A stretch of DNA of 64,000 nucleotides from positions 32,134 to 96,133 of the forward strand of contig CBDCAR010000001.1 in the NCBI GenBank assembly GCA_965213975.1, in the 5' to 3' direction. Position 1 is the stretch's first letter, and every line of letters starts with the position of its first letter. The DNA is from Candidatus Spongiisociaceae bacterium. GTDB taxonomy: Bacteria; Actinomycetota; Acidimicrobiia; Spongiisociales; Spongiisociaceae. Under the pieces are notes generated by a model. It was not told the DNA's origin and did no database searches. It saw only the letters and a program-made list of their open reading frames with translations. The translations under genes and the position numbers were made by a program. This document shows, piece by piece, positions 4,154 through 6,322 of this stretch.

Positions 4154-4524
4154 CAGGAGCCAACGCGGAATCCGCGGCGGGAGACCTGCGCCGACTCGAA
4201 GGCGGACCGTTCCCCACCATCCTCGCCGACCCGCCCTGGCGTTTCACGAACCGCACCGGCAAGTTCGCCCCCGAACATCGCCGGCTCTCCAGATATGACA
4301 CGATGACCACTGCCGCGATCCGGGCCCTGCCAGTTGCCGAGGTCGCTACAGAGAACGCTCACCTATACCTATGGGTGCCGAACGCTCTCATCGCCGACGG
4401 ACTACGCGTGATGGAATCATGGGGTTTCACGTACAAGTCGAACATCGTTTGGGCGAAGCGCCGAAAGGACGGTCGGGTGTTGTTTTGGGGTGTGCGTGTA
4501 GCTGGTGGCTGCTATTATAGGGTG

Positions 4525-5970
4525 ATGTCTGTGTGGGTGTATAAGACGGTGCGTGTGCGGTTGCGTTTGTCTGCGGGTGTTCGGCGGCGGGTGTGGCGTC
4601 TGAGGGGCCAGCAGAACCAGGCGTTCAATCTGGGTGTTGAGTTGGGTTTGGGGGCCGTGTCTGGGGGTTTGAGGGTGCCGTCCGCGTTCGATGGTGACAA
4701 GACGTTGACCGAACGCCGCGGGGACGGGTCGATACCGAACCACCCTGTTGTTGCGTTGCAGCGGCCTGGTGTGAGGGCAGGCTTAGACGCGGTGACCAAA
4801 TGGGAGAACGCGGTTTGGAAGCACGGCAAAGACGTCGAATACTGGCAGAGTCGGGTGGAAGCGGCGTTAAGCGAAGGCGACGGGTTGGGGTACGCGCAAC
4901 GTAGGCTCGCCGTCGTGACCCAACGACGGGACCGTCACCGCCAGCGGGGCACGCGCAGGCTTTTCCGGTCGCGTAAACGTTTCGAGAGAGAACCGTCAAA
5001 CGGCGCCGCGCTGGTGTTCGACGAACGCGTGCGAGTGCGAGACGGCGGCCTAATGTTGCCTGGCGGTACCCGACTGAAACTCGCCGACCAAGGCTGGCAG
5101 CCTGCGGAAGGATGGGAACTGCGCGGCTCCGCGCAGATAGTCGATGTCACCCCCCGTGTCACAAGACGCACCCGGCCCGAGCACCGCAAATACGAAGCCC
5201 GCCTACAACTCCGCCAACCACAGGTCCTACGCCCACTACCCGAACGCCGAGAACAGGTCGTCGGTGTAGACCCCGGCGCGGTAATCCCAGTGATGGTCTC
5301 AGACGGACGAGCCTTCGGGCTCCCCGACGAAGACGCTGTAAGCGCCCAGATCAAAGGGCTTCAACAGCGTCGGGCGCGCTGCACACACAAGTCGCGGCAG
5401 TGGAACAAGCTCACCAGACGAATCCGTGTCCTAGAAGCCAGGCGGGCCAATCGTCGGACGGACGCCAGCCGACATATCGCCAAACACGTCGCCACCACAG
5501 GCGGGATAAGGGCAGTCGGGTCGGAAGCGAAGAACGCCCGCCAGCTCACCCGCTCCGCGAAAGGCACCAAACAGCATCCAGGTGTGAACGTAGCTCAGAA
5601 ACGCGGATTGAACCGCAAGCTGTCTAAGGCCCGGTTTGGGGGGATCCGCTCAGATATCGAAAGGGCCTGCCAACTGCGAGGGGTACGTTATGTGCCTGTC
5701 GCGGCTGGCGGTTCGTCGACGACCTGTCACCGTTGCGGTAGCAAGGGGACACGCGAGACCCAAGCAGTGTTCCAATGCGACAAAGGCTGCGGGTGGGTCG
5801 GTAACGCCGACTACAACTCAGCCAACGTAATAGGAGACAGAGCATGGACGTGCCTCAACGGCACGTCTGGGCGGTCGGGGCGGCCGCCGTCAGATGGTCA
5901 GCTGGGAGGGAAACCCAGCCAACACACCACAAGTGTTGCCCGAGACCATCCCAAACAAACCCTGAGGTAG
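4525..5970 (+). CDS. tnpB: RNA-guided endonuclease TnpB
   Basis: RuvC-I VVGVDPG, RuvC-II GSEAKN, Zn finger CHRCG/CDKGCG, RuvC-III NADYNSANVI; D-E-D triad intact. TATTAT -10 at 4513-4518 gives a leaderless start. In frame with the MT-A70 N-part. Confidence 0.93.
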   Translation: MSVWVYKTVRVRLRLSAGVRRRVWRLRGQQNQAFNLGVELGLGAVSGGLRVPSAFDGDKTLTERRGDGSIPNHPVVALQRPGVRAGLDAVTKWENAVWKHGKDVEYWQSRVEAALSEGDGLGYAQRRLAVVTQRRDRHRQRGTRRLFRSRKRFEREPSNGAALVFDERVRVRDGGLMLPGGTRLKLADQGWQPAEGWELRGSAQIVDVTPRVTRRTRPEHRKYEARLQLRQPQVLRPLPERREQVVGVDPGAVIPVMVSDGRAFGLPDEDAVSAQIKGLQQRRARCTHKSRQWNKLTRRIRVLEARRANRRTDASRHIAKHVATTGGIRAVGSEAKNARQLTRSAKGTKQHPGVNVAQKRGLNRKLSKARFGGIRSDIERACQLRGVRYVPVAAGGSSTTCHRCGSKGTRETQAVFQCDKGCGWVGNADYNSANVIGDRAWTCLNGTSGRSGRPPSDGQLGGKPSQHTTSVARDHPKQTLR

Positions 5971-6007
5971 ACAGCCAACAGCCGTCAACCCAGAGATATA
6001 AGCCCCA
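5880..6007 (+). ncRNA. Putative omegaRNA scaffold / right end of the TnpB element
   Basis: Overlaps the tnpB 3' end and has a subterminal hairpin. This is the segment conserved in all four copies. RNA boundaries are inferred. Confidence 0.55.
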
Positions 6008-6322
6008 CGAAAGGACGGTGGTCCTGACGGACGGGGCGGCGGCTTCTACTTCCGGAATGTGACAGAACTGATCCTGTTCGGCGTTAAGGGAAGGATGCGG
6101 ACGCTGGCTCCAGGTCGGCGGCAGGTGAACATGATCGAGACCCGGAAGCGCGAGCACTCCCGCAAACCCGACGAGCAGTACGGCATCATCGAAGCCTGCT
6201 CGCCCGGTCCGTACCTGGAGCTCTTCGCCCGCTACGTCTGGCAGGGTTGGGCATCGTGGGGCCTCGAAGCCGACGACGAAGTAGTTCCCCGGGGGAAGCG
6301 GCACGCCGTGTACAGATGATTG

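Follow-up and report, generated by a model that had tools for sequence, protein, structure and literature searches.

A transposase-less TnpB element in an MT-A70 methyltransferase gene is probably a damaged rider on IS1595-type ends

The main text of Altae-Tran et al. (2023, PNAS, PMC10691335) describes six DDE-associated branches of TnpB (DDE-1 to DDE-6) with inverted terminal repeats, as well as solo TnpBs with ends matching elements that do carry a transposase, for which mobilisation in trans is inferred there. A 2026 review gives ISL2, IS630 and IS1031 as partners of TnpB (PMC13565253). Here we analyze a tnpB element, copy A, that interrupts an MT-A70 DNA methyltransferase gene in 64 kb of DNA from a Candidatus Spongiisociaceae bacterium. 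This whole stretch, the window, is part of the second contig (C2, 182.7 kb) of a 2.6-Mb genome. The arrangement resembles the DDE-associated TnpBs of that main text in having tnpB within symmetrical inverted-repeat ends and in occurring as copies without a transposase; the 3′ end of tnpB lies <250 bp from the transposon end there and 37 bp from it here. The partner differs, being apparently of the IS1595 family here and IS630 where that main text names one, and neither the main text nor the review names IS1595 as a TnpB partner.

IS1595 elements have 8-bp target-site duplications (TSDs), GG termini and a transposase with a zinc ribbon plus DDE_Tnp_IS1595 architecture, and are bacterial relatives of the eukaryotic Merlin superfamily (PMC8101967). 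The family of copy A is alike in its GG(G) termini, terminal inverted repeats (TIRs) of ~20–25 bp and 8-bp TSDs (PMC8101967). It is unlike them in that there is no transposase inside and tnpB travels as cargo, together with an RNA scaffold reaching into the right TIR, and copy A itself departs further, with one TIR and a 12-bp repeat. The IS1595 family reportedly includes forms with passenger genes.

The IS1341 group of IS200/IS605 is similar in carrying tnpB only, in several copies, with a structured 3′ RNA and a right-flank guide. However, IS200/IS605 elements have subterminal hairpins and a Y1 HUH transposase and, like IS607 elements, no TIRs or TSDs (PMC13565253), whereas the present family has TIRs and 8-bp TSDs in a genome without Y1. 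Eukaryotic DNA transposons that carry Fanzor (Bao & Jurka 2013, PMC3627910; Yoon et al. 2023, PMC10711439) share a TnpB-type cargo, non-autonomous cut-and-paste movement, TIRs with TSDs and a TIR that forms part of the RNA scaffold region, but the present elements are prokaryotic, on an Acidimicrobiia-related replicon. For the damage in copy A, the closest parallel is in truncated derivatives of cut-and-paste elements. In the P element and Ac/Ds, truncated or internally deleted derivatives arise by interrupted gap repair and microhomology joining. The likeness lies in an end lost at a short microhomology and in internal deletions at 2–3-nt microhomologies on the same replicon; the join seen here also duplicated extra target bases, and the pathway is drawn by analogy.

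In the window, the 12-mer CGAAAGGACGGT is found at two positions only, 4462–4473 and 6008–6019 (expected count 0, from 100 shuffles), and 1534 bp (4474–6007) separate the two copies. This insert consists of a 51-bp leader, tnpB and 37 bp up to the right boundary. Joining 4150–4473 to 6020–6319, with 4474–6019 taken out, yields an uninterrupted frame of 207 aa, whose product covers the Pfam MT-A70 profile in full (E 6e-28, 1–172 of 172), in agreement with the preliminary description, in which removal of the insert with one repeat copy restored a methyltransferase. The empty MT-A70 allele that it proposed to look for has a counterpart in four uninterrupted homologs from related genomes (G007, G018, G022 and G011; 87–93% amino acid identity), which read ...AAGCGC CGnAAGGAyGGn GGTCC... 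(KRRKDGGPDG) at the insertion site. The 12-mer region is single in all four, which shows the repeat to be genuinely duplicated target sequence, exact over 12 bp as first described. The reconstructed empty site reads ..GAAGCGC followed by CGAAAGGACGGTGGTCCTGA... The parts of the locus are as follows.

4150..4473, forward strand: 5′ part of the MT-A70 DNA methyltransferase gene, start codon placed at 4150, codons 1–108, ending R-K-D-G and collinear with the intact homologs up to the insert
4462..4473, no strand assigned: left 12-bp direct repeat CGAAAGGACGGT; its first 8 nt are the probable IS1595-type target duplication CGAAAGGA
4468..4524, forward strand: truncated left end of the element; from GACGGT onward it is homologous to the left ends of C, D and the relatives L029, L035 and L036
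4525..5970, forward strand: tnpB, 481 aa, intact; ATG at 4525, TAG at 5968–5970
5880..6007, forward strand: likely omegaRNA scaffold, which overlaps both the 3′ end of tnpB and the right end; nucleotide conservation and predicted structure
5984..6007, forward strand: right TIR GTCAACCCAGAGATATAAGCCCCA, identical or nearly so in 8 of 8 genome copies with 8 different flanks
6008..6019, no strand assigned: right 12-bp repeat; original target sequence and start of the would-be guide
6020..6319, forward strand: 3′ part of the MT-A70 gene, 99 codons and stop

Relatives of copy A show how intact elements of this kind end. This TnpB lineage is rare: outside this genome, the closest proteins have ~60% identity and were found in ENA metagenome assemblies. 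Our family sample comprised 13 loci whose TnpBs have 42–61% amino acid identity to that of copy A. At none of the 13 is there an adjacent tnpA, and the original view of copy A as a tnpB element without a transposase thus extends to its relatives. All 13 are bounded by TIRs of ~20–25 bp (GGGGCTTATAT...TTGAC), in which 19–24 of 24 nt match between the two ends. Perfect 8-bp TSDs flank L026 (AAACCGAG), L027/L028 (CTAGTACT), L037 (AATCCGAA) and L038 (ATATCAAA), and another, GTCTCATT, flanks a 727-bp derivative of a second TnpB family in the genome under study (C1:1650610-1651336). Partial TSDs were seen at L078 (7/8), L029 (6/8) and L077 (5/8). With the chance of an 8/8 match at ~1.5e-5 per element, the perfect cases indicate that the family makes 8-bp duplications.

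The base directly 5′ of the left TSD is G in six of the eight other TSD-bearing TnpB elements (L026, L027, L037, L038, L029 and L077); three of these six G flanks read GTG, and the DDE element L053, described below, also has G. L078 and copy A have C there, and the C1 element has T. The G may reflect a one-sided target preference or a short transposon-associated motif (TAM), a reading drawn from a small sample from which copy A, with its C, deviates. The TSD itself, at 8 bp and variable in sequence, cannot act as a fixed TAM. Further searches for the family gave little. Scanning the genome collection with a single TnpB protein returned no match, a search of that collection with an 8-sequence alignment returned two loci in Acidimicrobiia metagenome-assembled genomes, and the metagenome-collection scan returned no match. 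DNA searches of plasmid and phage collections matched the MT-A70 gene alone and never the element. The 400 kb of G007 contig 2 that were examined for empty sites of the other copies proved chromosomal and not syntenic.

C2 holds four full-length copies, A (the MT-A70 insert), B, C and D, and four partial ones. Copies B, C and D are 88–92% identical to A, and divergence among the copies of this genome is 6–11%. All eight end in ...GTCAACCCAGAGATATAAGCCCCA and then run into differing flanks, which fixes the right boundary of copy A at window position 6007. On the left, copies C and D carry the inverted right terminus (TGGGGCTTATATCTCTGGGTTGACAGY), which copy A does not have; the terminal 21–23 nt, TGGGGCTTATATCTCTGGGTT[GA], which form the left TIR, are missing from it. 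The earlier impression that the element has no convincing TIR thus holds for copy A, whose left repeat is lost, but not for the family, and the right end of copy A (5984–6007) is one half of a TIR. No flanking direct repeat longer than 7 nt was found at the seven other copies in the genome (0 of 7), an outcome by which, according to the preliminary description, its reading would be refuted; exchanging the flanks among copies B, C and D likewise revealed no TSDs. A repeat of 12 bp is thus particular to copy A, which is damaged. The partial copies are listed below.

12599..12712, forward strand: partial copy P1, right end only, ~114 bp
54594..54811, reverse strand: partial copy P2, right end joined to an internal piece of tnpB; 5′-truncated
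60387..60757, reverse strand: partial copy P3, ~371 bp; right-end hairpin identical to that of copy A
G000 C2:109736-110371: fourth partial copy, right end kept

The right end is kept in all four partial copies, their 5′-side truncation points differ, and none has flanking repeats. The internal deletion in P2 lies at a 2–3-nt microhomology.

The copies of this genome have an extra T on the left (3 of 3: B, C and D) and an extra A on the right (6 of 8) outside the GGGG...CCCC of the relatives. The left end of copy C abuts 54 nt of a left end of the second family (G000 C2:122877-122932), a junction that looks like a nested insertion. The same second-family left end occurs on the chromosome (C1:1964172-1964400), where an IS3-like OrfA reading frame follows.

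The search for Y1, serine, DDE and reverse transcriptase genes, as originally proposed, yielded DDE transposases of IS1595 type and none of the other three. The genome has no match to Y1 transposase (PF01797; 6 of 14 control genomes were positive), to resolvase-type serine recombinase (PF00239) or to reverse transcriptase (PF00078), the controls being positive for both of the latter as well. There are two matches to IS1595-type transposase, both on C2. At C2:167280-168212 (forward strand) lies an open 310-aa frame with the zinc ribbon PF12760 and a complete DDE_Tnp_IS1595 domain (PF12762), scoring 131 bits with NF033547. At C2:162906-163886 (reverse strand) the transposase is truncated and, from around residue 190, continues as the fused frame of a nucleotidyltransferase (NTP_transf_2); its left end is GGGGCTTATATGCGTGAGTGCC, the outer 11 nt of which are the same as in the TnpB elements. 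The gene at C2:167280-168212 runs directly into an N6_N4 methyltransferase gene.

Among related, mostly same-genus genomes, nine IS1595-type transposase genes lie 80–100 bp behind left ends of the same type, with ends located by motif-anchored search. CTTGACA stands at positions 18–24 in three of these nine left ends, exactly as in the TnpB elements. One of the transposase-associated loci, L053 (G008), is a 2253-bp IS1595-type element with a perfect 8-bp TSD, TTCGCGGA. The end consensus is GGGGCTTATATac.TG..TTGAC in the TnpB elements, compared with GGGaATTATATACgtgAGT / ..CTTGACA in 12 IS1595-type ends. We also searched for a single element containing both an IS1595 transposase and tnpB and found none. 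The shared termini and footprint make it very likely that these elements are IS1595-type riders with an 8-bp footprint, moved by a transposase supplied in trans. This was one of three routes put forward in the preliminary description, and it is the one that stands. The 8-bp TSD itself is present in relatives and in L053; copy A has 12 bp, of which the first 8 fit, and copies B, C and D have none.

The left junction of copy A can be read against this background. Given a right terminus at 6007, an 8-bp footprint should read CGAAAGGA. An intact insertion has the footprint and then TGGGGCTTATATCTCTGGGTTGAC.GY.CGG... on the left, while in copy A the footprint is followed directly by CGGTCGGGTG, indicating that 21–23 nt, the entire left TIR, are missing. 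In keeping with this, we equate the 51-nt leader of copy A plus 23 nt with the 75 nt that precede the ATG in copy D. The last 6 nt of the left 12-mer, GACGGT, are homologous to family left-end positions 22–27, where GACGGT is native in L029, L035 and L036, and the right end of copy A has GACGGC at the mirrored TIR position. The target also has GACGGT, at positions 7–12 after the insertion point. Because GACGGT is present in both target and left end, the junction falls within a 6-nt microhomology, and the repeat is CGAAAGGA plus CGGT.

We therefore favor, as the probable history, a decayed non-autonomous IS1595-type rider whose 8-bp footprint was extended to 12 bp by a repair scar. The element would have arrived in the MT-A70 gene through normal DDE transposition, in which a cut staggered by 8 bp duplicated CGAAAGGA. 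An IS1595-family DDE transposase would have been supplied in trans, and the intact frame at C2:167280-168212, on the same replicon, is a candidate source. Repair at the GACGGT microhomology would then have lost the left TIR (21–23 nt) and added CGGT, creating the 12-bp repeat. The break could have come from one-ended or aborted transposition, from repair after an attempted excision, or from copying into a broken empty allele. Judged from the junction sequence, microhomology-mediated repair is somewhat better placed than coincidence, and the P2 deletion at a 2–3-nt microhomology counts in its favor. Copy A would be left with one transposase-binding end and should be immobile, with its tnpB and RNA region apparently intact.

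Several observations weigh against this history. The element around the open transposase frame has a degenerate left end and its right end was not detected; with the second transposase truncated, both IS1595 copies of the genome sit in degraded elements, so that they are at most candidate helpers. The link between transposase and ends rests on shared termini and TSD length. Roughly half of the elements with TIRs have no TSD (B, C, D, L033, L035, L036, L079, L080 and L081), and the copies in this genome differ by 6–11%, so no recent donor is present. If the extra A on the right lies outside the element, the 8-bp footprint becomes CCGAAAGG/ACGAAAGG, with one mismatch. The repair step is read from one junction, and a plain 23-bp deletion with a 1-in-256 coincidence yields the same sequence. 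As an observation on the TSDs in general, the share of elements without one exceeds what simple decay suggests, and recombinational exchange of flanks was looked for without success.

The cargo of copy A bears on some of the alternatives. Its TnpB scores 44 bits with PF07282 (cut-off 26.3), 100.3 bits with NF040570 guided_TnpB (cut-off 100) and 29 bits with PF01385, slightly below the 30.5 cut-off, and gives weak sub-threshold matches to the NCBIfam models IS607_TnpB and IS200_TnpB. In a 23-member family alignment, the RuvC residues D249, E334 and D429 are invariant, as are C401, C404 and C418 of the CxxC..CxxC zinc finger, with C422 nearly so. The last ~130 nt up to the right boundary are conserved in nucleotides across relatives that are just 45–60% identical in protein. 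Predicted stems in 5880..6007 comprise a long-range pairing (5893–5899 with 5944–5950), a hairpin GCTGGG..CCCAGC and a terminal hairpin GACAGCC..GCCGTC, and compensatory changes occur in 7 of 14 predicted pairs; in the alignment used, the L002 row was entered in the wrong orientation, with added noise as the only effect. Conservation and compensatory pairs are as expected of an omegaRNA scaffold running into the right TIR, and 5880..6007 is likely such a scaffold. An Rfam search of this 3′ region matched no family. As for the would-be guide (CGAAAGGACGGTGGTC...), every empty MT-A70 allele contains a match to it. The match to the empty site that was pointed out at the outset is thus real, but it is uninformative on mechanism, since the right flank of any insertion does the same.

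Upstream of tnpB, a −10-like hexamer, TATTAT, lies at 4513–4518, 6 nt before the start codon, and is a putative promoter element; a promoter scan of the forward strand gave no full sigma-70 match. A TAnnnT hexamer is conserved family-wide 6–8 nt upstream of the tnpB start codon, its equivalent in copy A being window 4513–4518, and this placement suggests a leaderless mRNA.

Two other histories account for the junction itself. One is homing: TnpB, with the right flank of a filled plasmid copy as its guide, would have cut an empty MT-A70 allele on a sister copy of the replicon, and the break would have been repaired from the filled allele, right side first. Synthesis would have stopped ~21 nt before the left terminus and the new strand would have annealed at GACGGT to the left broken end, making the 12-bp repeat the target stretch from the insertion point to the joining point. 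This produces the observed junction exactly, with no need of coincidence, and TnpB and the RNA region look intact in sequence. The right end is present in all partial copies, as right-to-left interrupted copying predicts, and TnpB-driven restoration of an element by recombination is established in IS605 elements (PMC13565253). However, the 5′ base at the MT-A70 site is C, against G in 6 of 8 other TSD-bearing TnpB elements, and so lends no support to cutting there by the TnpB of copy A; none of the partial copies has a flanking repeat; and any other source of the break gives an identical product. We regard homing as an unlikely origin of the scar. The other history, which we consider distinctly unlikely, is an ordinary insertion with an 8-bp duplication, after which an unrelated deletion of 23 bp between GA dinucleotides took away the left TIR, with the CGGT match arising by chance. 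Terminal decay is common in insertion sequences, this replicon is rich in degraded copies, and that position of the left end natively has CGGT or CAGY. Yet the deletion requires a 1/256 coincidence beyond the 8-bp footprint, where repair at a 6-nt microhomology requires none.

The remaining alternatives dispense with an IS1595-type transposase or question the locus itself. TnpB nucleases leave staggered ends, and a staggered TnpB cut filled in around the element could in principle give a 12-bp duplication without a transposase, at a copy with no left TIR. The guide would, however, need to match the site before the arrival of the element, and the family footprint is 8 bp rather than 12, with TIRs common to DDE elements and repeats at none of the other genome copies. 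To our knowledge, published TnpB staggers are shorter than 12 nt. This route, the main one originally proposed, is highly improbable. The remaining one, target-primed reverse transcription of a tnpB–omegaRNA transcript in the manner of long interspersed nuclear elements, would explain 5′ truncations and a duplication of variable length, and the partial copies do all retain the 3′ end and lack the 5′ end. But the genome has no reverse transcriptase domain where controls are positive, the other truncated copies have no duplications, and since 48 nt of sequence ahead of the −10-like hexamer remain in copy A, it was not copied from its own transcript; the route has next to no claim. The same is true of a Y1 TnpA of IS200/IS605 or a serine TnpA of IS607 acting in trans, with a repeat unrelated to transposition. 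TnpB usually occurs in those families, and the sub-threshold IS607_TnpB and IS200_TnpB matches would fit, but neither a Y1_Tnp nor a Resolvase domain is encoded in the genome, and the present family has TIRs and 8-bp TSDs, both absent from those families as the accounts in PMC13565253 and PMC6188088 present them. The first reading had already judged these two routes inadequate, and rightly. An assembly artefact at a repeated element, to which eight related copies on one 183-kb contig might point, is likewise barely credible: divergence of 6–11% between copies makes collapse or chimerism unlikely, and the reading frame is exactly restored at both junctions when compared with four independent homologs. 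Copy A is not evidence for a new TnpB insertion route; the proposal that it marked one is not supported, given the IS1595-type TIRs and 8-bp TSDs in its family.

Around the insertion, the MT-A70 start overlaps the stop codon of an upstream 88-aa open reading frame (ATGA, window 4150–4153); translation of both is probably coupled, within an operon that includes the SbcD-like phosphoesterase region nearby. In a 638-aa open reading frame (window 4054–5970, forward strand), the MT-A70 N-terminus, the truncated left end and tnpB are read continuously. Positions 4150 and 4525 are in one frame, and a full left end (+23 nt) would put MT-A70 and tnpB out of frame. This sharing of frame may be chance, or tnpB may use the expression signals of the methylase. 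Solo right-end remnants of the second, related TnpB family (..TCAACTCAGGTATATA[AG]GCCCC) lie at window 6323–6346 (reverse strand) and 51483–51506 (forward strand). One of them abuts the MT-A70 stop codon, and the gene has thus been struck by two different elements of this type.

Read from sequence comparison, transposase-less TnpB riders on IS1595-type ends, moved in trans, are the best-supported account of this family. TnpB riders on other DDE families are already published, the bacterial arrangement in outline only, and TnpB cargo on IS1595-family ends was not found in the published accounts consulted. On one replicon there are riders of this family, a transposase that may act as their helper and degraded derivatives, and the exact empty site can be taken from related genomes. 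Together they make a compact system in which to ask if TnpB riders are moved by an IS1595 transposase and if TnpB aids the persistence of a duplication-making transposon. The damaged copy A is a repair scar of modest interest unless homing made it. There is a small chance that its TIR-less left junction and 12-bp repeat are a fossil of TnpB-guided homing in a DDE-type element. If so, they would be sequence-level evidence of TnpB driving the spread of an IS1595-type rider between replicon copies, and homing would explain why every degraded copy here retains its right end.

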